DNA of 64,000 nt from an uncultured Planctomycetales bacterium (GCA_964648665.1 CAZYOA010000002.1:75002-139001); one strand, 5' to 3'; shown: positions 1 through 41,900, numbered from the stretch's first letter. Numbers and translations are program-made. The notes: a model not told the origin generated them from the letters alone.

Positions 1-606
1 AGATTGATCGCTAGCAAGCCCACCTTGAATAGTGACTGCCTCTATCGTAACAGGAATTTCCTGAGAGAAAGTTACTATGTTAATGACTCTACCTAAAAGC
101 TGGGCATCAATAATAACATCTTCTGGATTTCCAGAAAGACCAATAAGGTTTATTGGTGTTGTTATATTTAAGCGTTCGTTATAAGTTCCTGGCATGATGT
201 AAATTGTATCGACCCCACTTGATAAATCAATGGCATGCTGAATTGTGGCAAAAGCTGTTTCAGGAGTTAGCCCATTATTTGAATCATTGCCAGACGCAGA
301 AACATAGTAATTGGCTATGATGATGTCTGTGAGTTCTAATTTTTCATTGGCAAGATATGCCTTCGTACCCTCTAAATATTCTCTTATAATTTTCTCAGCA
401 GATTTTTCATCAACAGTAAACTCTGCTTCAATTTTATTTTTGTCTTTTTTAGGAAGAACGTTACGCAATTTAATTTTTTGTGTAATTTCATTTTCTTCTT
501 TTTCCGGTTGAAAGAATTTTGAAGATTGTCCAAACGAAGACGTAAAACTTGTCATAACAAATGTTGCTATGATTACTGCGGTGATTGATATTCTTTTTCT
601 CATCAT
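1..606 (-). CDS. Exported right-handed beta-helix (pectate-lyase fold, DUF1565-like) protein, first 202 codons; the gene runs off the window start
   Basis: Absent from the ORF track because there is no stop in the window. Manual minus-strand translation from ATG 606 gives MMRKRISITAVIIATFVMTSFTSSFGQS (signal-peptide-like), then NYYVSASGNDSNNGLTPETAFATIQHAIDLSSGVDTIYIMPGTYNERLNI. That is the SxxGxDxNxGT..PFxTIQxA and GxY pattern typical of beta-helix proteins. AAGGAGAG SD lies 2 nt upstream of the ATG. Confidence 0.6.
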   Translation of the reverse strand, partial: MMRKRISITAVIIATFVMTSFTSSFGQSSKFFQPEKEENEITQKIKLRNVLPKKDKNKIEAEFTVDEKSAEKIIREYLEGTKAYLANEKLELTDIIIANYYVSASGNDSNNGLTPETAFATIQHAIDLSSGVDTIYIMPGTYNERLNITTPINLIGLSGNPEDVIIDAQLLGRVINIVTFSQEIPVTIEAVTIQGGLASDQS

Positions 607-643: not shown

Positions 644-787
644 AAAAAAATCTTTATTCTCAATAACCGAAAATAAAGACTTAAAATATTTTTTATATTC
701 TTTCGGTAGTTCAGCCCTCTGTATCTATAAGATACAGAGCTGTAGCTTTGCGTGCTTGCCTTACGACAAGGTTGCCTTTATCAAGAA
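644..787 (-). promoter_or_regulatory. c-di-GMP-I (GEMM-I)-like riboswitch, copy A: aptamer ~700-787, intrinsic terminator ~644-679
   Basis: Minus-strand read: UUCUUGAUAAAGGCAAC-CUUGUC-GUAA-GGCAAG-CACGCAAAGC-UA-CAGCUCUGUAUC-UUAUA-GAUACAGAGGGCUG-AACUACCGAAAG. This is followed by UCUUUAUU-(13 nt)-AAUAAAGA-UUUUUUU, an SD and the ATG at 606. The order of conserved blocks (GGCAA, GNRA-capped hairpin, ACGCAAAGC, bulged hairpin, CUACCGA) matches GEMM-I as I remember it. Confidence 0.7.
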
Positions 788-911
788 TGCGCTTAACGCT
801 TTCATACAAAGAACGAAATTTCTTATCCTTAGAAAAGATAGCACATAATACTTACAATGTAAGGGGTTAAAGCTATTTTTATGAAAGCGCTTTCTTTTTT
901 TAGAATAATTT

Positions 912-947
912 TATAGAAAAAGGCCGGGTTAAAATCTAACCCGGCCC
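912..947 (-). terminator. Rho-independent terminator (GC-rich hairpin + U-tract) after the gene relic
   Basis: Minus strand: GGCCGGGUU-AGAUUUU-AACCCGGCC followed by UUUUUCUAUAAAA. The stem is 9 bp and perfect (922-930 / 938-946). Confidence 0.65.
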
Positions 948-1520: not shown

Positions 1521-4500
1521 TCATTGATCCGTTGAAGTTCCGATAAAATTCTGCTGTATGTCATTTTGAATATTAGAGATATTTAAAATCGAAGGTTCAA
1601 AGGTGTGTCCCGGAGCTTGGGGAGTTAATGTTATATTTGAACCTGGGTAGGCCAGGTATGCATAAAATGTTCCAGACAAAAAAACCTCACCAGTTCCTCC
1701 GGTTGCGCTTAAACTGATACCCGGAATAGCGAAGTAATTATTTGTTATAGTTCCTGAAACCATGTAAGCTTGAAGGGGTAAATTGCAAGAAGAAGTAACT
1801 TTAACATGATAGCCTTTGCCGGGTTTCAAAGATCCGATTTCATTAATCGATTGGCCATTTACTAGGCTAAGGGAATTATTATCTTCATCAACAGCTTGCA
1901 CAAAAACATCAGAGTCAATTAAAGGCTGAAATATCGCAGCAGCATCTATTTCATTTATTAATGGAAATCCAATAATATTCCATCCCTCGTTTAGAGTTAA
2001 AATTGTTTCATTTGGATCCAATGGAGCTTGATTACCGGCTATAGAAAAATTGACATTAGAATTCATCTTAATCTGATATCCTTCATTTATGTTCATTTCT
2101 CCAATAGTGTCAATATTGTAATCTGGCCAAATTACGCCTATATGATCATCTTTAATAATTTCAACTTGATTAATAATAGGATTAAGAATATTCGCTAAAC
2201 TCATATCATCGCATACTATGTTAAAAGAAATTAAATTCCACCCTTCTTTTAACTCAAAAAATTGAGAAGAATCGTAGGCACTAAAGTTTTGAATAACATT
2301 TTCTGGGTTAGCTTGAAGGATTGCGCTTTCCGGATCAAATATATAATCTTCAAAATTGGGTGTAACTGTCCAAGTTGTACTCCATGTCGAATTACCGGGA
2401 AGATCGAAAGAATAATATCCCTGGTTATTAGTTGTTGCATGAAATTGCCGAGAATAATTAGGGCTAGTTGCAATAACGGAAACATATTTTAAAGGTTGAC
2501 CATTCTTCAAGATAAATCCAGAAATCCGAAAAGCCAGTGTCACACAAACCTCGACCAATTTTTTATTTTCTGCATTCAGTTCTCCGTCAAAAACATTAAC
2601 TAACAAATCATAGGAACCTGTCTCTAAAGCTTTATTTGTGGTTATCGCTCCAGTGCTAGAATCAATTGCAAAAAACTCTTCTTCATTGCCTGATTCAAAA
2701 AAGTAAGTTAAATCTTGATATATTCCATCATCAAGAGCCTCTACATCAAAAACGTAACTGCCGATGTTTGCTAAAGTAGTCATATGCTTGAAACCTGTAA
2801 GTGTATCAAAATATGGAGGATCGTTGACTAGCTTTACTGTAATTATCATAGATTCAGAATCTTCTAAAATAGGTGTGCCATTATCCGAAACATTAAATGT
2901 TATCGAATGATCACCTGTTTGATTAAAATTTGGTGTCCAGCTAAATATTTGAGTTTCAGTGTTAAAAGTTGCACCTTCAGGTAAATCGTTTGCTGAAAAT
3001 ATTAAAATATCCTCAGAATTTGGATCAGTTGCTGATAGCGCAAATTCAATTGTATTTTCAGCCATGCATCCCTTGTTGCCAATAGGGCTTAGTATTGGTC
3101 GACTATTAAATTCAGAGAAATTGAAACGATATTCAGGGTCTCCCAATAAATTTGTGGTTAAATATACATATCTATAGCACTCATCCATTGCACTCGAAAT
3201 TAGTCCATTATTCTTTTCATGACTATAAGAATTTAACCTGCCAAGTGACTTTTCCGCAGGACCGCTAACATTGTTAAATGCTCCATCCCAAAACCATCTA
3301 CCAAATGTTTGAGATGCTCCATTTGTTGAATAAGCAGAAAACCATCCAAAGCGACTATTCATAACTGTTGCAAAAGCTCCTGTTATCGGTGAAGAAGTAA
3401 GCAATTTTTCTGAGATCGAATCAGTGTTGAGAGTCGTTGTGTAGGGATTTTCATTGTCAAAAGCTCCTGAATAGCATCCGTGCGAATAAATGAATATTGG
3501 TCTTTGATTGTCTAAATCCGAAACATCATCTAAGCTCATTTTCATGACCATTGTATTAGTGGCGTGGCCTGTGTGGTTAATATAGAATGCCCCTTCATTA
3601 ATTCTTGTCATTACTTCATCCATATTCCATTGATATTCAGGGGGGCTGTTTGGTGATCCTGCGGGAGGAGTATCGCAAAGCATATCAACTTCTTCTGGGT
3701 AATATGCTTCAATAAATCCAGAAGTTCCAGAGGGAATAGATCCAAATTTAATTTCTTCTATTTCAGCGATTGCGTATTTATATATTCCATAGTAAAGTCC
3801 TGCATATTCTCCTAACATTAAAGGATCTAAGCGTTCATTATTTGGTTGAGCGAGAATAGTTTTTTGAACAAAATTATCAGCTTCGGTTATACTATCTACA
3901 GGCGCTCGTCCAACAAAAACATCTGAAAAAAGATCAATGTAAATATTGATATCGTCAATTTCCATAAAAGAATTATTATTGTTTGAATCGAATCCTCCGT
4001 CTAGGTTTGAATAGTACAAATCAGATGGGATCTCTGTTTGTCCAAAAGCTGCAGGACAAGTCCCTAAATATCTAACTGGTACAATAGGTAGCTCTGTTTG
4101 TCCTCCTGCCAATGATTTATCCGCATCTCCACCAAGTAAAACGTATTCTGTAGAAAGTTCTTGATAGGCGTATCGAATATAATTTCTTATTTTTGCTGCC
4201 TTATCATTAAATTGATTAAATGATCCGCAAGTGTCTCCCCAATTATAAGGACCCGTGCAACTATAATCAGAGTCATCGTAAATATCTTCTACTGTGACGA
4301 CACAAGCTGAGATCGGATTTGTAAGTCTACTTTCTTTGTAATCGGCAAACACCTGAAAAGAAAGTGCAAGATTTTCATCTGTTATGATGAGGTATTGGCA
4401 TTCCTCTCTTGATGGATCCATAGGGTTGCGATCTATCGGATAACTATCTAAGATATATGATTTAATTTCTCTTTGATTTTTCGGTAAGTTTTCTAAAGCC

Positions 4501-5378
4501 GTGCTTTTATCAACTATTTTAGAATTTTCCTTTTTGGCATTTTGTTCATTGGTATTGGCTGTAATATCTGATAAAAATTTATCTAGAATTATTTCTCTGT
4601 CTGTCTGCTTTCCTCGATATCCATGTTCGATAGGCGCAGCTTTTGGTTTTAAAGTTATAGTTATGGTTTTATAATATGAAATTTTGCCATTTTCTGGAAT
4701 ATATTCAATTGGGCATAAGTTAAATGTATAAAAAACAAATCCTCTGTCGACTTGTTTGGCAGGGTTCGTATATGTTCGTTCAGGATATTTATTTTTTGAT
4801 AGATAAATCATTTCATTAGGCATTGCGGATGAAACATCGAAGCCCGCATCGATTAATTTTTGTTCCGGTAGAATAGGAAGCTGCTTCTCTCCATAACTGA
4901 GCTTATGTTCACTGGAGAGCGTTACGCGCTCGCCAAGAGTAATGGTGTAGCTGTCCAGTTTTGTGGCAAACGGTAAAAGAACTTTTGCGTATCGAATCGG
5001 AATTTCTGGTTTTCCTTCTTCGCTTTGAATTTGAGTCGCTGGCATGCTAATTTTATTATAACCATTTTCAAGAGGAATAAAAGTTGGTTCATCAAAAGTG
5101 TATACAATGGTAATTGTCTCACTCTTTCCGGTTTTTTTAGGAATTCTTGAAAGATCTAAAAGATTTTTTAATGGATCAATGGACGATTTTTCTTCATCTT
5201 TTATATATTCCTCAAATGGCAAGATTTTTTCAGATTGCTCAGTTTTTTCAGATTTAGATGCCAAATTGCGACTAAAGGCGCTTGTTGCTTTTCTTGTCTG
5301 TGATAAAACTTGATTTGGCGCTAAAAAGCTTAAAATTATGAGCAACGCTAAACATTTGGTTGATAAATTATTTTTCAT
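1521..5378 (-). CDS. Exported multidomain cysteine peptidase, C25 (gingipain)-like, with cadherin-like / Ig-like modules and two C-terminal GWN repeats
   Basis: Signal peptide MKNNLSTKCLALLIILSFLAPNQVLSQ. Clan-CD His/Cys context INHTGHATNT ... RPIFIYSHGCYSGAFD resembles the C25 NYxGHG ... ACxxGxF pattern. Cadherin/dystroglycan-type modules: SATDPNSEDILIFSANDLPEGATFN..FSWTPN and FFAIDSSTGAITTNKALETGSYDLLVNVFDG. CarboxypepD_reg-like module: ISGFILKNGQPLKYV..TNNQGYYSF. GGGAG SD precedes the ATG. Confidence 0.6.
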   Translation of the reverse strand: MKNNLSTKCLALLIILSFLAPNQVLSQTRKATSAFSRNLASKSEKTEQSEKILPFEEYIKDEEKSSIDPLKNLLDLSRIPKKTGKSETITIVYTFDEPTFIPLENGYNKISMPATQIQSEEGKPEIPIRYAKVLLPFATKLDSYTITLGERVTLSSEHKLSYGEKQLPILPEQKLIDAGFDVSSAMPNEMIYLSKNKYPERTYTNPAKQVDRGFVFYTFNLCPIEYIPENGKISYYKTITITLKPKAAPIEHGYRGKQTDREIILDKFLSDITANTNEQNAKKENSKIVDKSTALENLPKNQREIKSYILDSYPIDRNPMDPSREECQYLIITDENLALSFQVFADYKESRLTNPISACVVTVEDIYDDSDYSCTGPYNWGDTCGSFNQFNDKAAKIRNYIRYAYQELSTEYVLLGGDADKSLAGGQTELPIVPVRYLGTCPAAFGQTEIPSDLYYSNLDGGFDSNNNNSFMEIDDINIYIDLFSDVFVGRAPVDSITEADNFVQKTILAQPNNERLDPLMLGEYAGLYYGIYKYAIAEIEEIKFGSIPSGTSGFIEAYYPEEVDMLCDTPPAGSPNSPPEYQWNMDEVMTRINEGAFYINHTGHATNTMVMKMSLDDVSDLDNQRPIFIYSHGCYSGAFDNENPYTTTLNTDSISEKLLTSSPITGAFATVMNSRFGWFSAYSTNGASQTFGRWFWDGAFNNVSGPAEKSLGRLNSYSHEKNNGLISSAMDECYRYVYLTTNLLGDPEYRFNFSEFNSRPILSPIGNKGCMAENTIEFALSATDPNSEDILIFSANDLPEGATFNTETQIFSWTPNFNQTGDHSITFNVSDNGTPILEDSESMIITVKLVNDPPYFDTLTGFKHMTTLANIGSYVFDVEALDDGIYQDLTYFFESGNEEEFFAIDSSTGAITTNKALETGSYDLLVNVFDGELNAENKKLVEVCVTLAFRISGFILKNGQPLKYVSVIATSPNYSRQFHATTNNQGYYSFDLPGNSTWSTTWTVTPNFEDYIFDPESAILQANPENVIQNFSAYDSSQFFELKEGWNLISFNIVCDDMSLANILNPIINQVEIIKDDHIGVIWPDYNIDTIGEMNINEGYQIKMNSNVNFSIAGNQAPLDPNETILTLNEGWNIIGFPLINEIDAAAIFQPLIDSDVFVQAVDEDNNSLSLVNGQSINEIGSLKPGKGYHVKVTSSCNLPLQAYMVSGTITNNYFAIPGISLSATGGTGEVFLSGTFYAYLAYPGSNITLTPQAPGHTFEPSILNISNIQNDIQQNFIGTSTDQ

Positions 5379-5404
5379 GCCATTCTCCCTTTAAAATTTA
5401 TTTA

Positions 5405-5543
5405 TCAATAAAAAATCCTTATTCTCGATAAACCGAAAATAAGGATATATTTTTCCTTTCGGTAGCCTCAGCCCTCTATGTGCTTGCATAGAGCTGAACA
5501 GCTTTGCGTCCTTGTCTCACAACAAGTTTGCCTTTATCGAGAA
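5405..5543 (-). promoter_or_regulatory. c-di-GMP-I (GEMM-I)-like riboswitch, copy B: aptamer ~5455-5543, intrinsic terminator ~5405-5446
   Basis: Minus-strand read: UUCUCGAUAAAGGCAAA-CUUGUU-GUGA-GACAAG-GACGCAAAGC-UGUU-CAGCUCUAUG-CAAGCA-CAUAGAGGGCUG-AGGCUACCGAAAGG. This is followed by AUCCUUAUU-(14 nt)-AAUAAGGAU-UUUUUUAUU, a GGGAG SD and the ATG at 5378. Confidence 0.75.
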
Positions 5544-5659
5544 AATAAAAAAATATTTTATAAAAGAACATGTATTGTTTCTAATTTAAGTATATCTTAT
5601 AAATTTACAAAAACAATGGATAGGCAAGATTTTATGAAAGCGTTTTCTTTTTTTATGAG

Positions 5660-5702
5660 TTTTTATAAAAAAATAAGTCGGGTTAAGAATTTTAACCCGG
5701 CC
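5660..5702 (-). terminator. Rho-independent terminator after the S8 subtilase gene
   Basis: Minus strand: GCCGGGUUAA-AAUUC-UUAACCCGAC (one G-U pair), followed by UUAUUUUUUUAUAAAAA. Confidence 0.6.
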
Positions 5703-5855
5703 CAAATTACATATTTTTTTTAAAAATCTACTGAATCGTTAAGTTGCAATTCTCATCGACTTTTACAGCTATCTCCAAGCAAAAAATTGTTATTTTAATG
5801 TTCTTTTGATTTTATGACTGTTTCTTGCCTTCTATCTTTTTAAAAGAAATTCATT

Positions 5856-8800
5856 TTAATCAATATCAATGTAATCTGTTTTTTTCATAGAAAATAAATA
5901 TGCTCGACCAGCTTCAAACTGTCCGATTCCATCAATCCAGACACCATCAACTTTTTCAATGTATTTTTCACCTTGCACATCCTCAACATGCCACAGAGAA
6001 TCATTGTCAGGATCGATTAGCCCGGCTATGGTATCCATCGCATTTTTATCTGCTAAAAATCCAATAAAGTTATAACCTGAAAAAAGTTCAACATTTGTTT
6101 GTCCCAAGTACAAAGTTCCTGCAAGTGTCATGGTCGTAGCAGAATTCAACTGGATTACAACACCATTTCCTGGGCTTAAAGGTTCCGTAAAATTATTTAC
6201 TCCCGAACCTGGATTAAAGAAGTTATAATTTCGGTCATAAGCCATCTGCAAATTTCCCTCTGCCACTAATGGTGCTAGCAAATCTTCTATTAGCATACTT
6301 TCGGCTTGAACTGTTGGAGCAAAAAAATTCATACCCGCATCAAATGTCAAATTTTGTGTAATAATGGCCACTTCGTAGCGATAAATCAAATCAAATGCAT
6401 TTGAGACTTTTACTTGATAACCTTTTCCCGGCTGCATTTGTCCAATTGTGTTGATGTTCGTTTCCGGCCAATAGACATGTCCTTGCCCATCTTGAACGAC
6501 AATAATATCCTCTTGATGTCCTGCAAAGACATCTTCTATATTAAAAGGTTGATCCAGCGGATACCCAATCATTTGCCACCCTGGAGACAATGTAACAGTA
6601 GTAGGTAAAGATACAGGATTAGCCACCAAAGAAAGAGTGGCTTGCTCATTGACTTTAACTTGATAGCCTTCCTTGACATCAATTTCGCCAATCGTATTGA
6701 TTCCATATTCTGGCCAAAAAACATGTCCTGAGTCACCCTTGATAATAACAAGGTTCCCTTGAGAAATAAGCGGCGCAAAAATACTCTCAACCGACATATT
6801 TACTGGTTCGACATTAAAAGAAATCATATTCCATCCAGCATTAAAATGTATCTCTTGGGAAACAGCCGACATGCCTGTGGAGTAATTCTGAACAATATCC
6901 TCATTGACGGATGTGTAATATATTGGCGTGAGTGGATTAAAAGTGTAGCCTTCTTTGAATGTTTCTACTGTTCCAGACCAGTCCTGTTGAACAACAAAAC
7001 GATATGTTCCATCAGCTCCTGTGGTAATAGGTGTTATATTGGGGTCGTTGGTAGTCACCAAAACCCCTTCCAAAGGGGCCCCATTTTCTGAAACAACACC
7101 TTGAATATTATATCGGGAAAGAATAAATGCATTTCCCGAGCCGAAAAAGTTTCCTAATCCATAAGCATTTCCAATGAGCATTTTACTCTCTGATAGCGCA
7201 ACTTGAGTACCAAACGAACCCAATTCGTTCTCAGGAGGAACAATCCGAGTTGTCTCTGTCTCTGGCCATGCCCCAGATGAATTACGGGTATACAAATAAG
7301 TTGCATTTCCTAAGGACCCTCCGTAAGACCCTACAAGAATTATGTCATCTTCTATTGCAACAGATCGACCAAAACATCCACCTTGTATACCATCGCTGGG
7401 TAGAATCTTGCGTGTTTCATTCTCGGGCCAGTTACCATCGGAATTCTCAACAAAAATATAAGCTGCTCCTAAATTTGAAGCAATAGAATCATCTGTGTGA
7501 GCTCCTACGATGGCGGTATTTCCAGATAAAGAAACTTGGGCTCCAAATGAACTTTGAGAACTACCGTCACTTGGAAGTATTTTTTGTTCTTCTTCCCATA
7601 AGGCAGTGTTTTCGTTTAATTTAAAAATATAAGCAGCTCCAGCATTGGTTCCGTTTGTGTCGTCGTTAAAATCTCCGATAACAAGCGTATCTTCTTGAGT
7701 TGAAATTGATGTTCCAAATTGATTACTATTCTTGCTGTCATTTGGAAGTATTATGCTATTAGCAATGGGAGGAAATGTACCTTGAGCATTTCGTTTAAAT
7801 ACATAAACAGCTCCTGTTGAAGCGCCAGATATAGATGAGTTTCCATCTCCAATAAAAAGTGTATCTTCTATTAAAAAAACAGAACCTCCAAAATGAAAAC
7901 TAGCTTTTTGTTGATTGTTCCAATTTATTCTTTGTGTATAGGTTTCTGGCCACGTACCGTTTAGGTTTTGTTCATAAATATAAACATAAGAAAAGCTTCC
8001 GACAATAATGGTGTTATTTGAAGCACTGACAGATAATCCATAAACAGTCGCCTCTGGATTAGGATTTACTAATGCCTTGCTTTCAAAGTGAGGCCAATTG
8101 CCATCTTCATCCTTGGAATATATATAGGCGCTACCGAAATAATTATTTGTAGAAGCGCAGCCTATAACAGCCTTATCTCCTTGTATAGCTATTTGATAAA
8201 ATCCAAACCCACTACCCGAAGAAACATCAGATCCAATTATTTTTCCGTTTTCCCAATTGTTAACAACTCTTTTGTAATCCTCGTAAACATCACCAGCCTG
8301 ACTGGAAACTGACAGCTTCAAGTATAGTGGTGTTGCTTGCTCCAAGACATTAAGCGTTGCTAAAATAGGATATTCTATTTCACCCCCAGTTCCTGCCTCA
8401 GGGTATTTCTCGCCAAATGTGATATTATCTGCAACCATCCAAGGCCCCTCTAGAGATAAAGCATATTCCACTGTATAAGAGTTAAAAGACTCGCCGTAAG
8501 CAACACCTCTTATTTCAATAATTTCATTTTCAAAATATTGCTTAAAATTTTTCGGAGAAAATATTTTTGCCGCTAATGGCGTTGAAACATCTAAAGCTGC
8601 ATCTGCATTTAACATTCCATGCCCAAATGTTTCATCAAATCCTGAATCGCTAAAATTAACAGCTGAAAATCTTAGAGCAGATCGCATTTGCTCAGGAGTA
8701 AATTCAGGATGCAAAGCCCTCATTAAAGCCAATGTGCCAGCTACATGCGGAGCCGCCATAGATGTTCCATTTGATCGATAATAAATATCGTCTACAATGT

Positions 8801-10286
8801 GTTCTCCATTTTCATAAAAATCAGTATTTCTTGCTCTTAAAGATAGGATTTCAACTCCGGGAGCGGTAACATCAACCTTCATCCCAAAATTTGAAAAGTC
8901 AGCTTTTTCAGAATTAGAATCAATCGCCGCGACTGCGATAACGCTCTGCAGATTCGCTGGCATAAAAGCACTTGTTTCAAAATCGCTATTGCCCGCACTT
9001 GCAATATTCACACATCCACTCGCTTGAGCAAGGGCAAATGTATCTTCAAGAATTTGGGAGTATCCTCGCCCAGACCAAGAATTGTTTAATAGATCAGCAC
9101 CATTTTCAACAGCAAAATATATGGCTGAAGCGAGATCATCCTCATAGCCGTCACCTTGTGAATCTAGTCCTTTGATTGCCATAATTTCTGCTAAAGGAGC
9201 AACTCCAATGATGCCTATTCCATTTTCTTTTGCCGCGATTGTTCCTGCGCAATGCGTTCCATGTCCGTGATCATCCATAGGATCTGTGTCTTGATTAACA
9301 AAATCATATCCGTATTCATTTTGATCGTTCTGCCACATGTTTTCGAAAATATCAGGATGAGTGTAATCTACGCCAGAATCAATAACAGCAACAATGACAC
9401 CTTGACCCTTTGATTTTGCCCAGGCACCATTATCTTGCAATGGATCTCCCGTATGAAGAAAGTCTGGTGTGAGGCCATACATATCTCTATAGCTATTGCC
9501 CCAGCTACCAGAGGATGAATAATAAGGATCATCTGGTTCATAAAAAGCATAATATTTCTTAACATAATCAACAAATTCAACATTGTCATCTGATTCATAC
9601 ACTGCTTTTATTTGTTCAATATTGAAAGATTTGTTGTTAAATTCCATAACAAAAATAGAAGAAAGTCTGTGAAGATATTTTACCTGAAGATCAGCATTTG
9701 CGCTTTGTGAGCGATTATAAAATCGTTTATTCATATTTATAACTTTTTCTGTGAGCTCAAGCTCTTTCTCTTTTTCAAAATCAAGAGCTATCTTAGAAGT
9801 TAAAGGGCCTGTAAAAGAATCAATTGAATGTTTTAAATCTAAATCAATTAAAGGCTTTATTTCTTTAAGGTCGTATTTCTTATTTAAATTATCCAAATCA
9901 CTATTGCCTGTAATCTGAGAAAATCCATTCTTTTGACTTGCAAGTTTCTCAGCAACAACAGAAAGCCCACTTCCCTCTTTAAAACGGATAAATAATCGAT
10001 TGTCTCTATACTCAACTGTGTCTGGCGCTTTCATTACAGCAGGAGTTTTGCCAATTTTATTATAGCTATTTTCTTTTTCTTGCTGATGTTTTAATAATTC
10101 ATGAAATTCTTTAAGGTGTAGACTAGATTCAAAATTATCCTTAAGAGGCTTAAAAGATAATTCTTTAATAGAAAACTTGCTTTGTCCGTTTGCCAAAACA
10201 AGCTCAGGTAAAAAGCAAGCTCCTAAGATAAAGATAGTTGCTGTTAAGCAAAGAAATATTGTTATTGCATTTCTTTTATATTGCAT
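5856..10286 (-). CDS. Exported S8 subtilisin-family serine protease fused to a 7-blade FG-GAP-like propeller, a CarboxypepD_reg-like module and four C-terminal GWN-type repeats
   Basis: N-terminal hydrophobic signal or anchor: MQYKRNAITIFLCLTATIFILGA. Catalytic triad motifs: VAVIDSGVDYTHPD, HGHGTHCAGTIAA, GTSMAAPHVAGT. Seven repeats of type FGxSVxxxxxxxxVGxxxxxxxxxxGAAYIFxxxxxGxWPE. Confidence 0.85.
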   Translation of the reverse strand: MQYKRNAITIFLCLTATIFILGACFLPELVLANGQSKFSIKELSFKPLKDNFESSLHLKEFHELLKHQQEKENSYNKIGKTPAVMKAPDTVEYRDNRLFIRFKEGSGLSVVAEKLASQKNGFSQITGNSDLDNLNKKYDLKEIKPLIDLDLKHSIDSFTGPLTSKIALDFEKEKELELTEKVINMNKRFYNRSQSANADLQVKYLHRLSSIFVMEFNNKSFNIEQIKAVYESDDNVEFVDYVKKYYAFYEPDDPYYSSSGSWGNSYRDMYGLTPDFLHTGDPLQDNGAWAKSKGQGVIVAVIDSGVDYTHPDIFENMWQNDQNEYGYDFVNQDTDPMDDHGHGTHCAGTIAAKENGIGIIGVAPLAEIMAIKGLDSQGDGYEDDLASAIYFAVENGADLLNNSWSGRGYSQILEDTFALAQASGCVNIASAGNSDFETSAFMPANLQSVIAVAAIDSNSEKADFSNFGMKVDVTAPGVEILSLRARNTDFYENGEHIVDDIYYRSNGTSMAAPHVAGTLALMRALHPEFTPEQMRSALRFSAVNFSDSGFDETFGHGMLNADAALDVSTPLAAKIFSPKNFKQYFENEIIEIRGVAYGESFNSYTVEYALSLEGPWMVADNITFGEKYPEAGTGGEIEYPILATLNVLEQATPLYLKLSVSSQAGDVYEDYKRVVNNWENGKIIGSDVSSGSGFGFYQIAIQGDKAVIGCASTNNYFGSAYIYSKDEDGNWPHFESKALVNPNPEATVYGLSVSASNNTIIVGSFSYVYIYEQNLNGTWPETYTQRINWNNQQKASFHFGGSVFLIEDTLFIGDGNSSISGASTGAVYVFKRNAQGTFPPIANSIILPNDSKNSNQFGTSISTQEDTLVIGDFNDDTNGTNAGAAYIFKLNENTALWEEEQKILPSDGSSQSSFGAQVSLSGNTAIVGAHTDDSIASNLGAAYIFVENSDGNWPENETRKILPSDGIQGGCFGRSVAIEDDIILVGSYGGSLGNATYLYTRNSSGAWPETETTRIVPPENELGSFGTQVALSESKMLIGNAYGLGNFFGSGNAFILSRYNIQGVVSENGAPLEGVLVTTNDPNITPITTGADGTYRFVVQQDWSGTVETFKEGYTFNPLTPIYYTSVNEDIVQNYSTGMSAVSQEIHFNAGWNMISFNVEPVNMSVESIFAPLISQGNLVIIKGDSGHVFWPEYGINTIGEIDVKEGYQVKVNEQATLSLVANPVSLPTTVTLSPGWQMIGYPLDQPFNIEDVFAGHQEDIIVVQDGQGHVYWPETNINTIGQMQPGKGYQVKVSNAFDLIYRYEVAIITQNLTFDAGMNFFAPTVQAESMLIEDLLAPLVAEGNLQMAYDRNYNFFNPGSGVNNFTEPLSPGNGVVIQLNSATTMTLAGTLYLGQTNVELFSGYNFIGFLADKNAMDTIAGLIDPDNDSLWHVEDVQGEKYIEKVDGVWIDGIGQFEAGRAYLFSMKKTDYIDID

Positions 10287-10615
10287 AATTTTTTTCCCTT
10301 TTTAAATGTATTAAATAAATTAAATTGTGTTTATTGAAATTTAGAGTTTCTATTCTTTGTAATTTTGGAATAAAAGCATCCATTTCTTAATATTTAACTT
10401 TCTCTATATATTTCAATAAATCGAGTTTATTGCTTTGCTCTTTATGATTATCTTGTTTTATTCTTTAAGAAGTTTGAAATTATAACACAAAAAAATCAAA
10501 TAACAAATTTTATAAAGGATACCATGTAAAATCGAAAAAACAATGTTATTTTGAGTTTTTCTTGAATAATTTTAATTTTATTTTTAAGTTGAGGTCTATT
10601 AGAAGAATGATTATG

Positions 10616-10644
10616 TTGACAGCTTCAAAGGTGCACTTTATAAT
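10616..10644 (+). promoter_or_regulatory. Consensus sigma70-type promoter positioned for a leaderless transcript
   Basis: TTGACA (10616-10621), 17-nt spacer, TATAAT (10639-10644). Only 6 nt (ggcaaa) separate the -10 box from ATG 10651, and there is no SD. Confidence 0.55.
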
Positions 10645-10650
10645 GGCAAA

Positions 10651-22920: not shown

Positions 22921-24741
22921 ATGTATATTAATTTTATGAAAAAAAGACATACCTTTCATATTCCTGTCATGGGAACTGGGTTCACTATTGATACACCTAT
23001 AAAAGTTGCTAAATATGGCATATCCTCGGTTATTTCGCTTGTAGATGACACACTAATTGAGCAAATGAGAAAGTTTTATGCAAAGCTTTATAAGGAAGAC
23101 TATAGAGAAATCAAAAAAGGTGATCCAGATCATCGTGCAAGACGAATTACAGAATACTTAAATCTTGTTGATCGAATTGTTAAAAAGCAAATTTCTGATC
23201 TTAAGGTCTCTGCTTTTGAGACTGGAAGTGAAATTACAAAATATTTTGAACTCCTTCCTGATACTTCACCTTTTAAAAAGATTTATCAAAAAATGCTTCT
23301 AACTCAAGATTCTCAAACTAAACAAAAACTTCAAGATGAGTTGCGTGAAAATATAAGATCTGGAAGCATTGATGTCAACATCATGACAAAGTTAGACCGC
23401 ACAAACTATGATCAAAGCGGCAAAGAGCTTTCAGCAGAATTTTCAGATGCACTTGCAGCGTTTCGTGGTTATGCGCAAAGCACTTTGGAATCAGCAATTG
23501 TATTCTCAGCTGGATTTAATCGAAGACTGTATAGCTATATTGAGAATTTTAAAGATTTTTATTCTGATGCTGCTGGAAAGATAAAAAAGAAGATTATTTT
23601 AAAAGTTAGTGATCATCGCTCTTGTGTTACTCAAGGTAAATTTTTAGCTAAAAAAGGGTTGTGGGTTTCTGAATATCGCATTGAATCTAGTCTTAATTGT
23701 GGAGGGCATGCATTTATTTCAGATGGTTTTCTTCTTGGTCCCGTTCTTGAAGAGATAAAAGTAAAACGTGATGAATTTTTTTCTGGAATTAAAAATATTT
23801 ATCAAGAAGCTATTAAATTAAAGAATGAACTAGCGCCTCCTCCTTCTGACCCAAAAATTACAATTCAAGGTGGCATTGGTACGTTTGAAGAAGATCAATT
23901 TTTGATGAATCACTATAATATTGATGAAACCGGTTGGGCGACACCCTTTCTTCTTGCTCCTGAAATTGTTAATGTTGATGAGTCGACTTTAAAAAAATTA
24001 TGCAACGCCACCGAGGATGATCTTTATTTAAGTAATTGTTCGCCGATTGGAGTTCCATTCAATAATCTTAGAAGTGCTCCAAGCAATGTAGCTCAAGAAG
24101 ACCGAGTCAAAAATGGTCGCCCTGGAAGCAGTTGCTTTAAAGGACATCTTAAACTTAATACAGAGTTTACAGATTTGCCGATTTGTGTTGCTTCGCGACA
24201 ATACCAAAAATTAAAACTTGAGCAAATCGAAAATTCTGACAACAAAGATGGTTTACCTTTAAAAGAAGACATTGTTGCTAAAACTTGTATTTGTCATGAT
24301 CTTAGCGCGGCTGCATTGATCGCTAATAACATTGAAACAAAATATCCTTTAAATCCTGCGATTTGCCCGGGCCCAAATCTTGCCTACTTCTCAAAATTAA
24401 CAACATTAAAAGAGATGACTGATCATATTTATGGACGAATTAATTTGTTAAATTCAAAATATCGTCAACATATTTTTGTTAAAGAACTTGAGCTTTATGT
24501 GAATTCTTTTATTAGAGAAATTAAACTTTGCAAATGCACGTTAACTAATAAACAAATTGCATATTTTAATGGATTTAAGAAGAATCTAACAGACGGCATT
24601 GATTATTACTGCGATTTATTCTCAAAAATTTTGCAAGATGCACAAGATCAGCAAGCGCGAATTTTAGATGAATTAAAAGAATTTCGTTCTAAAGTTGACA
24701 GCATCATTCCTGCTGAAGACAATCCCCTTCGAAAAAAATAA
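22921..24741 (+). CDS. Conserved-looking hypothetical protein, 606 aa, function unknown
   Basis: Long ORF with coding-like composition. Motifs HIPVMGTGFTIDTPIKVAKYGISSVISLVDD, ESSLNCGGHAF and QGGIGT. I recognise no family. The start could instead be ATG 22936 (MKKRH). Confidence 0.6.
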   Translation: MYINFMKKRHTFHIPVMGTGFTIDTPIKVAKYGISSVISLVDDTLIEQMRKFYAKLYKEDYREIKKGDPDHRARRITEYLNLVDRIVKKQISDLKVSAFETGSEITKYFELLPDTSPFKKIYQKMLLTQDSQTKQKLQDELRENIRSGSIDVNIMTKLDRTNYDQSGKELSAEFSDALAAFRGYAQSTLESAIVFSAGFNRRLYSYIENFKDFYSDAAGKIKKKIILKVSDHRSCVTQGKFLAKKGLWVSEYRIESSLNCGGHAFISDGFLLGPVLEEIKVKRDEFFSGIKNIYQEAIKLKNELAPPPSDPKITIQGGIGTFEEDQFLMNHYNIDETGWATPFLLAPEIVNVDESTLKKLCNATEDDLYLSNCSPIGVPFNNLRSAPSNVAQEDRVKNGRPGSSCFKGHLKLNTEFTDLPICVASRQYQKLKLEQIENSDNKDGLPLKEDIVAKTCICHDLSAAALIANNIETKYPLNPAICPGPNLAYFSKLTTLKEMTDHIYGRINLLNSKYRQHIFVKELELYVNSFIREIKLCKCTLTNKQIAYFNGFKKNLTDGIDYYCDLFSKILQDAQDQQARILDELKEFRSKVDSIIPAEDNPLRKK

Positions 24742-24747
24742 ATAAAT

Positions 24748-26920
<2,173 letters not shown>

Positions 26921-31341: not shown

Positions 31342-32412
31342 TTATGTATGTGAAATACTTTTTTGAATAAGCAAGCAATCAATCATAACAAGAGCAGTCA
31401 TAGCTTCAACAACAACAACAGCGCGAGGACAAATACAAGGATCATGGCGACCCTTAATTTCCATTGACTTTATTTCACCTTCAAGCGTTGTGACTTCTTG
31501 AGGCTTAGCGATAGAACATGTTGGTCTAATAACAGCGCGTAAAATAATATCATTTCCGTTTGAAATTCCTCCAGAAATTCCACCAGAATGATTTGTTTTA
31601 AGGCTTAATGCATTATTTTTCCAAACTCCAGCATCGTTAAATTCTGATCCCTTCATTGTGACAGATTGGAATCCGTCACCAAATTCAACGCCTTTAATTG
31701 CACCGATAGACATAATTCCTGCAGCTAAACGAGCGTCTAGCTTATCAAAAACAGGATCACCTAAGCCAGCTGGACATTTTTTAACAACTGTTTCAATGAT
31801 GCCTCCAACAGAATCTTGATTTTCTTTTGCAATCTTAATTCGTTCGGCCATTAAAATAGCAGCTTCTGGATCTGGACATCGAACAGGATTTGATTCGATA
31901 GCAGAAAAATCAATATTCTTTGCAACAATATCATCAACCTGTTTTGTATACGATGTTACAGTTACTCCATACTCTGAAAGCATTTTTTTAGCAATAGCGC
32001 CAGCTGCAACACGCATAGCTGTTTCTCTTCCTGAAGCACGCCCTCCACCTCGCCAATCACGGATACCATATTTCTTTAAATATGCATAGTCAGCATGACC
32101 AGGACGAAAAATATCTTTTAAATCTTCATAATCCTTTGAATTTGCATCCGTATTCCGGATTAAAAAACCAATCGAAGTTCCTGTTGCTTTACCATTTAGA
32201 ATCCCAGATAAAATTTCAACTTCATCAGCTTCGCTTCTTGATGTTGTCAAAGAACTTTGACCTGGGCGTCGACGATTTAGTTCGATCTGAATATCATCTT
32301 TGTTAAGCGGTAACCCAGGACGAACACCATCAACGATAGCACCAATTGCAGATCCATGGCTTTCACCAAAGGTTGTTACGGTAAACAGCTTCCCGAAAGT
32401 ATTTCCAGACAT
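31342..32412 (-). CDS. aroC: Chorismate synthase
   Basis: MSGNTFGKLFTVTTFGESHG and RPGHADY blocks. I prefer start ATG 32412, 1 nt after the leuD stop. Confidence 0.9.
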   Translation of the reverse strand: MSGNTFGKLFTVTTFGESHGSAIGAIVDGVRPGLPLNKDDIQIELNRRRPGQSSLTTSRSEADEVEILSGILNGKATGTSIGFLIRNTDANSKDYEDLKDIFRPGHADYAYLKKYGIRDWRGGGRASGRETAMRVAAGAIAKKMLSEYGVTVTSYTKQVDDIVAKNIDFSAIESNPVRCPDPEAAILMAERIKIAKENQDSVGGIIETVVKKCPAGLGDPVFDKLDARLAAGIMSIGAIKGVEFGDGFQSVTMKGSEFNDAGVWKNNALSLKTNHSGGISGGISNGNDIILRAVIRPTCSIAKPQEVTTLEGEIKSMEIKGRHDPCICPRAVVVVEAMTALVMIDCLLIQKSISHT

Positions 32413-32413
32413 A

Positions 32414-33025
32414 TCAGACCCAAGGCCTTTCTTCTGACAACTTTTTTTCATAGTTATCGATTAAGTCAACAAATTGTTCAGTCCATCCAATACTATCTAA
32501 TCCTTTGATTAAACAATCTTTTACAAATGTACTAATTTCAAAATTATAAATTTTTTCATTATCTGTCATGATTTGTTGTTTTAGTAAATCAACTGTTATT
32601 TTAGCACCCTTGATATCTGCAGCAAATTTAAATAATTCATTAATTTCTTTCGGTGGAAGCGTAACTAGCAAAATCCCATTTCTTAAGCAATTGTTATAAA
32701 AAATATCAGCGAAACTAGGTGCAATAATTAATTTAAAGCCAAAATCTGATAGCGCCCAAGGTGCGTGTTCTCGGCTGGAACCACAACCAAAATTGTCTCG
32801 AGCCAATAAAACCGTTGCTTGATCATAAGGATTTTGATTTAAAATAAAGTCTGGATTTTTTTGTTCTTCCGCGTCGTCTAAATATCTCCAATCATGGAAT
32901 AAATGCTTTCCAAAACCAACTCGATCAATCTTTTTTAGAAATTGTTTTGGAATAATTGCATCCGTATCAATGTTAGCTCGATCAATTGATACAACAATGC
33001 CAGAATGTATTGTAATAGGCTCCAT
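32414..33025 (-). CDS. leuD: 3-isopropylmalate dehydratase small subunit
   Basis: GCGSSREHAPWAL block. 203 aa. Overlaps the leuC stop by 1 nt. Confidence 0.9.
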   Translation of the reverse strand: MEPITIHSGIVVSIDRANIDTDAIIPKQFLKKIDRVGFGKHLFHDWRYLDDAEEQKNPDFILNQNPYDQATVLLARDNFGCGSSREHAPWALSDFGFKLIIAPSFADIFYNNCLRNGILLVTLPPKEINELFKFAADIKGAKITVDLLKQQIMTDNEKIYNFEISTFVKDCLIKGLDSIGWTEQFVDLIDNYEKKLSEERPWV

Positions 33026-38929: not shown

Positions 38930-41900
38930 CTACGAATTTTCCTTGTTTGCTACTAATTCTTGAGAAAGCGCGATATCTTCATTAGTGTTTGGTTCATTTT
39001 CATCTAGCCCAAGCAATTGATAAATATTTGTCATCGGTGTAATGCTTATGCTTGCAGGAATCAATCCTGGTAAATCTTGAAGATTCATTCCTTGCCACTC
39101 AACCGGAACGTTAAACTCTATCGACGACGACCCCCTCTTTTCAATATCCAAATATTCAGCATTAAAATCAATACCCCCAACATTAGAAGAAGCTGTTGCA
39201 GAGGCTTGAGAAGAAGCCATGTGTCCTTGAGCCAAAACAACTTCTTGATCTTGCTTCAAAATACTTGGTATCCTTTTCTTGTCTGCAATTTCATTTCTAA
39301 TCGTATAGCTTCCTCTTTGACCGCTTAAGAATTGATCAAGATTATCTCTTTGTTTTTGATTCTTTAAGAAAATAAAGATTTTATTTTTCCCCACTCTTTC
39401 ATAGTCAAATTTCATTTTATTAATAGCATTAATCACATATTTCCTTGAATCAATTTCTAGTCCGAACATATCGTCCCGATAGCTCAATGCATCAGAAAGA
39501 TTATAACGTAAGTCTTCTGCAGTTATGTCATCGCCAATATTTTGACTTTCAATATAAATTTTAGCCATATGCACAAGGCGATTAAAACTAGCTTGGTTCA
39601 TGTTGTCTAAACAATTTTCATCATTTTCATTATAAAAAATTAAATTTTTCTTTACTTCATTTAAAGACTTTATTCGACCAGAAGGTTGATCGTAACTAGC
39701 CATATAAATTTTTTCGAATGCTTTGCCTAAGGATCCTGGCTCAACAATAATCCGGCCATTTTTTTGAGTTTTTCCTGATTGCATAATAATCTGCTCAACC
39801 CCAACACCTTTAATTCCTGCATTATCCCCTTTATAAGACTGAACAATTTCCTGCATTAGAAATTTCAAGATTTTAATATCCGACACAATCTCTCGTTCGA
39901 TACTGTCTCCAAACTTTTGCTTAATTTGAGAAATTTGATTATTAACAATATCAGCATAAAGAACATCTTTTTTCCCTATCGAGATCTCGATTTTCGTCTC
40001 ATATCTACTAGAATCGTTTGATTTTAAAAGAAAACTGATTAAATTTGTACTTGGAGTATGATTCCTTTTATATCTAATCCCTACACATCGTGAATGCGAA
40101 CGAAACGCATTTAATATTTTCTCTCCAGTTTCAATATCTGATTTATCAGCTGAAACAAAAATATCAATATCGTATTTTCCTGGTAAATCCATGTCTCTTG
40201 AAGTTGATCCTTGATTTACAATATCGGTTTTCAAATCTAAATCATTCAATTTTGAGAATATAAAATCACTAGCCTCTTCTCGCCTTTGATTTTCTTTAAA
40301 AAACAATTTTAAACGATTTGATAAATCTGCAATCGAAACTAAAGAATTTTTTTGACTTCTCTGCACTTTTGCTTGAACGCTTAAGCTTATCTTTAGTGCG
40401 CTTAGATCAATATCTGAATAATCCCCTTCTTCAGTGGTGTCTTTTCGAAGTTCTTGGACATCTTCAAAATAATCTAAAAGCGTTTTTCCCTCTACAATCC
40501 ATGGATGCTCAATAAAATCAGCGACTGACTCAAGGCTTTCAGGATCTAATTCTTCTCCTTCATACTTTTGACCAATTTGCACATCAGGAATTATCCTCCG
40601 AGTAGATATACTTTTTCCACTAACTGTCGTAGCTTTTCTATGATATTTACGAATAACCTCAATATTTTCACTCTCATTAAGCAATGCTTGCTGAATGATT
40701 TCTTTATTATCTTGATTTTCCTTGTAATCTGCGCTAATCAAATCAAAAAATCTTTTTGATCCGTCTGTTTGCATCTGTCCAAGCAAAAGTTTTAGATAGT
40801 CACTCTTAAGCCCTGTTTTCTTAAAATCTTTTAAAATATTGATTTGCTGATCAAGAAGAGCTTGAAGATTATTAAAATCTTTTTTATTTATTTCTCCTCG
40901 TTGAAGCGCTTTTAAAATATAAAAAATATTATCTTTTGCAATTCTCTCATATTTTTGCCATCGTAAAATCTTTAAAATATATGAATTTGCTGTTTGCAAC
41001 CCAAAATCGTCTTTCTTTTTCCTCAAATCGCTTTGAAGAAAATCTCCTGCCAAAATACTTCTTTTTCGGGCATATTCTTCTAGCGGATTTCTCCCACGCT
41101 TAGCGTCATAAAACGCTAAAGCAACATTGCGATCAGGTTCTCTTTGTCCTTTAAGTAAAACATTGTCAAATTCATGCAAAGCTTTCGGCCCAAGCCCGCC
41201 TTTAAGGGCATCTTTAGCTTCTCCTCCTTTACGCAAATAATGGAACAAAGCTGATGTTAGGGCATACGATAAATAATTTGCCTCGATATGATCCTGCTCT
41301 GCATAAGCGCGATAAGCACTAGAGATTGTGTTTAAATATTTTGGAACTTTATGTCCGTTAAATTCTTTAAGTTCATTAATTTCTTTAAACCTTTCCAAGG
41401 TCTCAGAAATTTTCTTTTCGCCAAAAATATCAATCAAGAAATTATTAATATTTTCTTCATTCTTTAAAAAATATGAGCCAATCTTACTCTCCAAACTACT
41501 CATTCCATTCGGTACTTTCTTGCTCCCCATATGCTCTTCAACCAAACTTGTTGATAAGCTGACAAGGCTATTTAAAAACACTTCGGATATAATTTGAAGG
41601 ATATATTGAAAATCCTCTTCACTATGTTCAGTCATTTTTCTTAAAGTTGCTGCTGCCGACACTTTTTCTATAGAAGAATCAATATTTGTAGCAGAATAAA
41701 CAAGGGATGACAGATGTATATACTTCTTAAGATGCTCTCTCTTGTCTGCAGCATTTTCATCCAAAATACCTTTGACTCCGTTTCGTCCAATCCATGATAA
41801 AATATGAATAGCTGATTCAGAGTTTTTTAATGCAGATTCTTTGAGAAATTGGTTAATAACAAAAGCAAGGCTATATATATCATTAATATTTTCTATCCAC

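Follow-up and report, generated by a model that had tools for sequence, protein, structure and literature searches.

The control of extracellular peptidases and envelope proteins by GEMM RNAs was noted in the first description of the motif, and among the genes preceded by it are those for subtilases, cysteine proteases and outer-membrane proteins (PMC1950547, Table 2). In C. difficile the class I c-di-GMP riboswitches act as OFF switches, and this holds also for the one that precedes the gene of the secreted protease ZmpI (PMC6200980). A precedent for the present locus is Cd1 of C. difficile, a c-di-GMP-I switch that turns transcription OFF and whose 3' aptamer strand also serves in the antiterminator (PMC9262584). 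Platforms of this type, with a terminator and an antiterminator built on the 3' strand of the aptamer, are already known. Here we describe an RNA leader, at positions 644-788 of the minus strand of a 64,000-nucleotide stretch of DNA (called the window), that can be compared with these systems. With a probability of roughly 70%, we read it as an mRNA 5' leader composed of a c-di-GMP-I aptamer and a terminator (copy A), acting as a transcriptional OFF switch and paralogous to a second such leader (copy B) in the same window.

The window was scanned whole against Rfam 15 with curated thresholds, and only two matches were found in the 64 kb, copies A and B, both to RF01051, the c-di-GMP-I family (Table 1). 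An earlier reading of the sequence without database searches (the sequence-only reading) had proposed a GEMM-I-like riboswitch with the same architecture 4.8 kb away, and had named the lack of any Rfam hit as the observation that would count against it. Both copies match the family and exceed its gathering score of 35 by more than 20 bits (cmscan; E 4.8e-09 for copy A), while the repeat comparison places copy B 4756 nt away, so the proposal is borne out. The RNA that had been quoted was found letter for letter on the minus strand, reading from 787 to 644, in the order aptamer (UUCUUGAUAAAGGCAAC...CUACCGAAAG), then UCUUUAUU, 13 nt, AAUAAAGA and U7. Copy A aligns with positions 1-87 of the RF01051 covariance model, i.e. 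as a full-length match, and it is a class I c-di-GMP riboswitch aptamer and a member of this family. The two hairpins joined by an AAA linker, the first with a GNRA tetraloop, are present in the cmscan alignment and its pair list, and the linker is invariant in the 74 aptamer sequences aligned in this work. Both copies keep G, A and C at the equivalents of the ligand-contact nucleotides G20, A47 and C92 (Vc2 numbering), and at these three contacts both would be canonical c-di-GMP sensors, judged by sequence. Copy A is likewise expected to bind c-di-GMP. It also occupies a 5' regulatory position, as it shares the strand of the gene and lies 96 nt before the ATG, with the terminator and U7 ahead of the Shine-Dalgarno sequence (SD).

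Vc2 of Vibrio cholerae, the RF01051 type, has in common with the window copies P2 with a GNRA loop, the AAA linker, P3 and the three contact nucleotides. The top pairs of P1 in the window copies, G-C and Y-G, are similar to those of Vc2; the register is G782-C705 and U783.G704 in copy A, corresponding to G14-C93 and C13-G94 in Vc2 (PMC11705072). A 5' regulatory location ahead of a secreted-protein gene is also like RF01051. On the other hand, Vc2 controls translation and the window leader has an intrinsic terminator instead, copy A has C/C in place of A25.G42 and C.A in place of C51-G88, and its GUAA loop comes without the 11-nt receptor. In both copies the receptor positions of the model in P3 are deleted. 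The lack of a receptor is usual for GYRA tetraloops (PMC1950547) and is therefore no argument against RF01051 membership; the GUAA loop of copy A and the GUGA loop of copy B without the receptor represent a known subtype, and the GNRA tetraloop is kept between the copies, as had been claimed.

Table 1. Coordinates of the features of the copy A leader, of its sister copy and of the surrounding segment (positions counted from the first letter of the window; Vc2 numbering for aptamer nucleotides)
Feature	Position	Strand	Basis or remark
c-di-GMP-I (GEMM-I) aptamer, copy A	702..786	-	RF01051, 59.2 bits
Aptamer 5' flank, used by P1 (as its 5' strand) and by antiterminator helix 1	779..788	-	
G equivalent to G20, contacts one ligand guanine	776	-	cmscan mapping; invariant in the 74-aptamer alignment
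P2 hairpin ("P1b" in some papers)	750..775	-	cmscan alignment, pair list; G-C/C-G base, AAC/CAC internal loop, 6-bp CUUGUC/GGCAAG, GUAA at 761-764
C at A25 position	771	-	A in 73/73 other aptamers
C at G42 position	754	-	G in 73/73 other aptamers
A equivalent to A47, intercalates between the two guanines	749	-	cmscan mapping
P3 hairpin	708..747	-	Long unbroken stem, no 11-nt receptor, C.A mismatch 745/710 at base
A at G88 position, gives C.A mismatch	710	-	G in 73/73 other aptamers
C equivalent to C92, Watson-Crick with second guanine	706	-	Antiterminator partner G667
Aptamer 3' flank ACCGAAAGAAU, used by P1 (as its 3' strand) and by antiterminator helix 2	697..707	-	
Intrinsic terminator hairpin, copy A	651..679	-	12 bp, AU-rich, -11.0 kcal/mol with closing pairs
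17-nt switching segment UUUUCGGUUAUUGAGAA inside terminator	657..673	-	Pairs with other arm or with both aptamer flanks
U7 tract of copy A terminator	644..650	-	
Regulated gene, 5' part	1..606	-	ATG 606-604; SD GGAG 611-614; runs off window
26-nt block with palindrome GAAAGCGCTTTC, candidate promoter/operator of both leaders	877..902	-	96% identical to 5630-5655
G+C-rich hairpin terminator of preceding remnant gene	921..947	-	Upstream limit of the transcription unit of the leader
S8-protease paralogue 3'-end remnant, part of duplicated segment	1080..1279	-	84% identical to 5853-6052
Hairpin terminator after C25 gene	1430..1456	-	
Sister aptamer, copy B	5458..5542	-	RF01051, 57.0 bits; core positions all canonical
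Copy B terminator hairpin and U tract	5410..5446	-	14 pairs, -15.4 kcal/mol
Shared C-terminal domain	L040:7536-8045 (beta-helix protein, on a metagenome contig); 1773-2267 (C25 residues 1038-1202); 5856-6995 (S8 residues 1098-1476); strand given for the two window proteins	-	

A hairpin followed by U6-7 is present in both copies. The hairpin of copy B (5415-5446) is listed by a consensus terminator scan, and that of copy A is not listed because it has fewer than three G-C pairs (two). The copy A terminator is thus a weak one, which speaks against the OFF-switch reading. In both cases the terminator lies outside the aptamer and starts about 21 nt (copy A) or about 11 nt (copy B) after it. A small extra AU hairpin (AGAAUAU...AUAUUUU; 683-702, minus strand) lies between aptamer and terminator in copy A; copy B is without it, and its spacer is 10 nt shorter. 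The 17-nt segment inside the copy A terminator is complementary to the two aptamer flanks in two helices. Helix 1 is formed by 657-665 and 779-787, i.e. UAUUGAGAA with UUCUUGAUA, and helix 2 by 666-673 (UUUUCGGU) and 700-707 (ACCGAAAG), which contains the C92 equivalent. Since both helices use the flanks of P1, P1 with its bound ligand and the four-way-junction antiterminator are mutually exclusive. By computation, the antiterminator thus shares strands with P1 while the terminator stays outside the aptamer, which is the arrangement of an OFF switch.

The mechanism that we propose would proceed as follows. Without ligand, the emerging 17-mer would pair with both aptamer flanks, with UUUUCGGU on ACCGAAAG covering the ligand-contact C92 and UAUUGAGAA on UUCUUGAUA; helices 1 and 2 together with P2 and P3 would form a four-way junction in which the two halves of the terminator are held apart, and transcription would read through. 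With c-di-GMP bound, the flanks would be locked together in P1 and C92 would pair with the ligand, so that the freed 17-mer could form the terminator hairpin just before U7 and transcription would stop.

Folding calculations were compared with this scheme. For copy A, the four-way junction (-41.4) and the terminator fold (-43.5) are separated by 2.1 kcal/mol, and when helix 2 alone is enforced, helix 1 forms unaided. For copy B, the unconstrained minimum free energy structure is the four-way junction itself (-44.6). When the transcript is lengthened step by step, both antiterminator helices have a probability of at least 0.99 before the 3' arm of the terminator is complete, and this value is reached at length 146 for copy A and at 134-140 for copy B. 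Enforcing two P1 pairs brings the terminator to p = 1.0. For the full-length copy A transcript without ligand, the terminator is already the favored state at equilibrium (p = 0.97), and read-through would therefore rely on kinetic trapping. Only 2/2000 dinucleotide shuffles of the copy A platform, and 0/2000 of that of copy B, match both flank duplexes at least as strongly. The complementarity of helix 1 is nevertheless weaker evidence than its appearance suggests. It is partly automatic, because the 5' flank pairs with the 3' flank, the 3' flank with the 5' arm of the terminator, and the two arms with each other. The sequence-only reading left it unstated whether the switch is ON or OFF. From the anatomy, in which the P1 strands and C92 are shared with the antiterminator, a transcriptional OFF switch is predicted, and this is the direction that we infer from the folding model.

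Both Cd1 (Cdi-1-3, upstream of flgB) and Cdi-1-12 (upstream of zmpI) resemble the window leaders in having a class I aptamer, a downstream terminator and an OFF direction, which for the window leaders is a prediction. As in Cd1, the antiterminator is built on the 3' aptamer strand and so excludes ligand binding (PMC9262584); as in Cdi-1-12, a secreted protease is the target, here of copy B (PMC6200980). Unlike Cd1, the 5' flank in the window also pairs with the loop and 3' arm of the terminator, which gives the four-way-junction antiterminator. The platform is also much shorter, given the spacings of about 21 and 11 nt, and the host of the window probably belongs to Omnitrophota and not to the Firmicutes. 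The design of helix 2, the 3' tail against the 5' arm of the terminator, is also seen in Bacillaceae leaders of the form ACCGAAA...UUUCGGU (L005, L015, L027, L028 and others). These leaders differ in their P3 and receptor types and come from unrelated lineages, and in L005, which was inspected by eye, the 5' flank has no complementarity to the 3' arm of the terminator.

The position of the leader upstream of a beta-helix protein gene, also part of the sequence-only reading, is confirmed by the N-terminus of the product, which matches DUF1565 of the right-handed beta-helix family. The complete gene is found on an identical metagenome contig (L040) and encodes an 839-aa protein. Behind its signal peptide the protein has a DUF1565/right-handed beta-helix region and a CarboxypepD_reg-like domain, and its C-terminal domain also occurs in the two neighboring proteases. 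The mRNA of the copy A leader would be monocistronic. All the relevant genes are on the minus strand, beginning with a 1476-aa S8 subtilase with FG-GAP repeats (5856-10286). After a hairpin terminator come copy B and the gene of a 1285-aa Peptidase_C25 protein (1521-5378), and then a terminator, the S8 remnant, a further terminator, copy A and the beta-helix gene. From direct-repeat and blastn comparisons, 606-1279 and 5380-6052 constitute one duplicated segment of about 670 nt, with a spacing of 4753-4773 nt and a flank identity of about 77-84%. The S8 protease gene upstream contributed its 3' end to this segment. In the remnant, a 60-aa ORF (1083-1265) matches the final 60 aa of the 1476-aa S8 protein at 88% identity. 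As the two intervals are one duplicated segment, leaders A and B are recent paralogues from a single segmental duplication and not independent lineages. No third riboswitch copy was found upstream of the S8 gene (10287-10650), even at E <= 1.

The best-conserved portion of the duplicated intergenic region is the 26-nt block TAAAAAAAGAAAGCGCTTTCATAAAA, about 90 nt upstream of each aptamer, whose palindrome is perfect in copy A and differs by one base in copy B. The window has no further occurrence of the block. It may serve as a promoter element, or as an operator for a protein that would act in addition to the riboswitch; promoter prediction gave no convincing sigma-70-type site common to both copies.

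How far the two copies support a selected fold was evaluated by tallying their differences pair by pair in every helix. At a sequence divergence of about 20%, only three differences alter both partners of a pair and keep it paired. Distal P3 has two of these compensatory changes (G-C/A-U and A-U/G-C), and the third is in the terminator (U-A/C-G). The sequence-only reading had pointed to the distal second stem (GUAUC/GAUAC versus AUG/CAU) and to a C-G to U-A double change in the terminator arms, the latter of which is borne out. It had also listed the P2 stem, CUUGUC/GGCAAG versus CUUGUU/GACAAG, but this difference consists of two one-sided changes through G-U wobbles and not of a double change. 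The pairing of ACCGAAA with UUUUCGGU is present in both copies as described, but ACCGAAAG and UUUUCGGU are identical in A and B, and the helix is therefore without covariation signal and silent on selection. Likewise the pairing between the 5' flank and the terminator loop is found in both, with changes from U.G to C-G and from G.U to G-C that are each one-sided. The antiterminator model is accordingly drawn from two paralogues in which helix 2 is invariant and helix 1 has one-sided wobble changes only. The general claim that the differences preserve pairing holds for the three double changes and the remaining one-sided ones, but one pair is broken, the C.A at the base of P3 in copy A, which is C-G in copy B and in 72 further aptamers. 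With three changes between recent paralogues, the comparison of A and B is weak by itself and only suggestive of a selected fold; selection on the fold, which had been argued from the two copies, is upheld through the covarying RF01051 family.

For this family background we prepared a MAFFT alignment of 74 aptamers (alignment A2), consisting of the two window copies and 72 aptamers from the pattern scans described below. In its P3 interior the window copies are one column out of register; the counts were limited to the P1-top, P2 and P3-base pairs, and the cmscan alignment was used elsewhere. In P2, double changes occur at 6/6 stem pairs, and 98.1% of the cells are paired, a value reached by 0/500 shuffles. 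Both window copies conform to this covariation.

The same alignment shows where copy A departs from the family, which the sequence-only reading overlooked. At three near-invariant core positions, each uniform in the 73 other aptamers, copy A has the substitutions A25C, G42C and G88A. The internal loop of P2 has C771 and C754 where copy B has A and G, while the neighboring A23, A24, A43 and C44 equivalents are kept. At the base of P3, C745 faces A710 in place of the C-G found in 73/74 aptamers, copy B included, and the pairs on either side (A-U, G-C and U-A) are retained. The scan patterns by which the aptamers were recovered left the A25, G42 and C51-G88 columns unconstrained. In the crystal structures of Vc2, A25.G42 is a Hoogsteen/sugar-edge pair (PMC11705072), and both nucleotides are among those with more than 95% conservation (PMC3764141, PMC11705072); C51-G88 lies near the binding site and is formed solely in the ligand-bound state (PMC11705072, PMC3764141). 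The loss of A25.G42 leaves copy A in RF01051 by the curated model score. These rare substitutions make ligand binding by copy A less certain than by copy B, and copy A appears as a divergent family member whose affinity may be lowered or lost.

The main rival to our reading follows from this point, namely that copy A is a decaying duplicate without useful ligand binding, and that the leader is a constitutive attenuator or read-through element. Copy A alone of the 74 aptamers combines C/C at A25.G42 with C.A at C51-G88, the affected nucleotides being highly conserved and one of the pairs being formed near the binding site when ligand is bound (PMC3764141, PMC11705072). Debris of the duplication lies nearby in the form of the S8 remnant (1080-1279), and duplicated class I riboswitches that are non-functional have precedents in Cdi-1-4 and Cdi-1-5 of C. 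difficile (PMC6200980). On the other hand, the three ligand-contact nucleotides are intact and the helices still pair despite a divergence of about 20%, three double compensatory changes among them. The full terminator/antiterminator logic is kept, the covariance-model score is slightly above that of copy B, and the downstream gene is intact with its signal peptide and SD. We consider decay unlikely. With a similarly small probability, copy A may be a retuned aptamer, in which A25C, G42C and G88A lower or reshape the affinity for c-di-GMP relative to copy B. Each of the two OFF switches would then have its own c-di-GMP threshold, and the C25 peptidase and the beta-helix protein would be shut in sequence. 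In the extreme form of this possibility, copy A would sense a related ligand.

Less probable still is that the leader is an ON switch, or acts chiefly on translation, so that c-di-GMP raises the output of the beta-helix protein. Many GEMM-I examples are ON switches, built with a terminator that overlaps the second hairpin on its 3' side (PMC1950547); in copy A there is no overlap with P3, and the terminator starts 21 nt past the last conserved base of the aptamer. Surface and adhesion proteins are commonly induced by c-di-GMP, and the two states are close in energy, so that the direction depends on which strands the ligand locks. The competitors of the terminator are both P1 strands and C92, which are sequestered by the bound ligand and favor the OFF direction. 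Translational control is further disfavored by the SD, which is 30 nt past the U tract and outside the predicted alternative pairings.

c-GAMP (GEMM-Ib) riboswitches are defined by an A in place of G20, and this class was rejected for both copies by the G at 776 (copy A) and 5532 (copy B). The GGC variant family RF03167 (c-di-GMP-I-GGC), which has the overall fold in common with the window copies (clan CL00126), was rejected as well, since its gathering score of 59 is not reached by copy A (56.9 bits, in E-value mode) or copy B (52.6 bits) and the A47 position is not G; copy A reads ACGCAAAG (ACGCAAA) where the RF03167 consensus is ACGCGAAg. It is very improbable that copy A senses another ligand, such as another cyclic dinucleotide, as a variant like the c-GAMP or the GGC/UAU classes, because its near-threshold RF03167 score and its three unusual core substitutions, which could be taken in that sense, are opposed by a G at G20, an A at A47 and a C at C92, and the substitutions lie off the direct ligand contacts.

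Related leaders were searched for with two patterns. The pattern ACGCAAAGC..TACCGAAA..TTTCGGT was scanned over 185,579 species genomes, a collection from which the genome of the window is absent, and gave 38 loci, mainly in Bacillaceae and Clostridia. The pattern GATAAAGGCAA..ACGCAAAGCT..CTACCGAAAG was scanned over JGI metagenomes and gave 50 loci with diverse c-di-GMP-I aptamers. No close relative of the window leaders was present among the 38 or the 50 loci, and no orthologous leader in another organism was found in the two scans, whose loci were used as family background only. In most of the JGI loci CUACCGAAAG is directly followed by an SD (GGAG), suggesting that these aptamers act on translation by way of P1. 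Two tandem c-di-GMP-I aptamers within about 120-250 nt were observed at several loci (L042, L045, L047/L050/L072, L086 and L090). Exact-protein look-ups for the C25 and S8 proteins gave four contigs with leaders 100% identical, and hence no strain variation. The closest homologue of the 839-aa protein has 33% identity over half its length, and no riboswitch was found upstream of it on its contig (L092). The loci of two relatives of the C-terminal domain (L096-L099) had no Rfam match.

The domain in question, of about 165 aa and undescribed, is common to the three secreted proteins. In the beta-helix protein it is 51% identical to that of the C25 protein and 40% identical to that of the S8 protein, where it occurs in tandem repeats. 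It has no Pfam match, and a search of 5.8 billion proteins returned two relatives, which is probably an undercount as the C25 and S8 paralogues of the window were unlisted. Its role may be in anchoring or sorting, specific to this lineage. Repeated cassettes make up the array of genes for the secreted proteins. For example, the block with a GC-rich hairpin and ATGAATTTAGAAAATCAG... after the C25 gene (1289-1456) recurs with 96% identity after the 839-aa gene (L040:8074-8242). Contig L040 ends at the second copy of this hairpin block, and L039 and L093 break a few hundred bases into the first. The breaks of several contigs at the block suggest an assembly-confounding repeat.

For the host, the chorismate synthase of the window (31342-32451, minus strand) has as best named relatives Candidatus Aceula meridiana (68%) and many Candidatus Omnitrophota/Omnitrophica (60-66%), and unnamed relatives with 82-84% identity were found in Logan and ENA assemblies. 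By this single marker, the host is probably affiliated with Omnitrophota. Several window proteins are also present on a 147.7-kb contig in NCBI and JGI sources. The remaining window contains ordinary chromosomal housekeeping genes (Rnf, aconitase, ThiC, GshAB and PntAB). An AhpC-like ORF (26366-26920) lies directly upstream of thiC (24748-26430, minus strand) on the same strand, and no TPP riboswitch was found in the window at the Rfam gathering thresholds. Two large ORFs had no Pfam match, one of 2249 aa (38930-45679, minus strand) at E 1e-5 and one of 606 aa (22921-24741, plus strand) at E 1e-3.

No paper on a c-di-GMP riboswitch in Omnitrophota came up in a full-text literature search, a result that covers the papers listed other than the ComFB preprint and its later version in PNAS, and we regard this as a matter of sampling and not of kind. 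Copy A is an ordinary, duplicated member of the well-known c-di-GMP-I family, and copies A and B leave the knowledge of this riboswitch class unchanged. The paired leaders are a small natural experiment, having the same platform logic with three rare core substitutions in one of them, and they could be used to gauge how much of the P2 internal loop and the P3 base an aptamer needs. For the organism, their value is in annotation, as the C25 peptidase and the beta-helix protein are marked as likely outputs of c-di-GMP signalling. Both are predicted to be repressed at high c-di-GMP, as ZmpI is in C. difficile.
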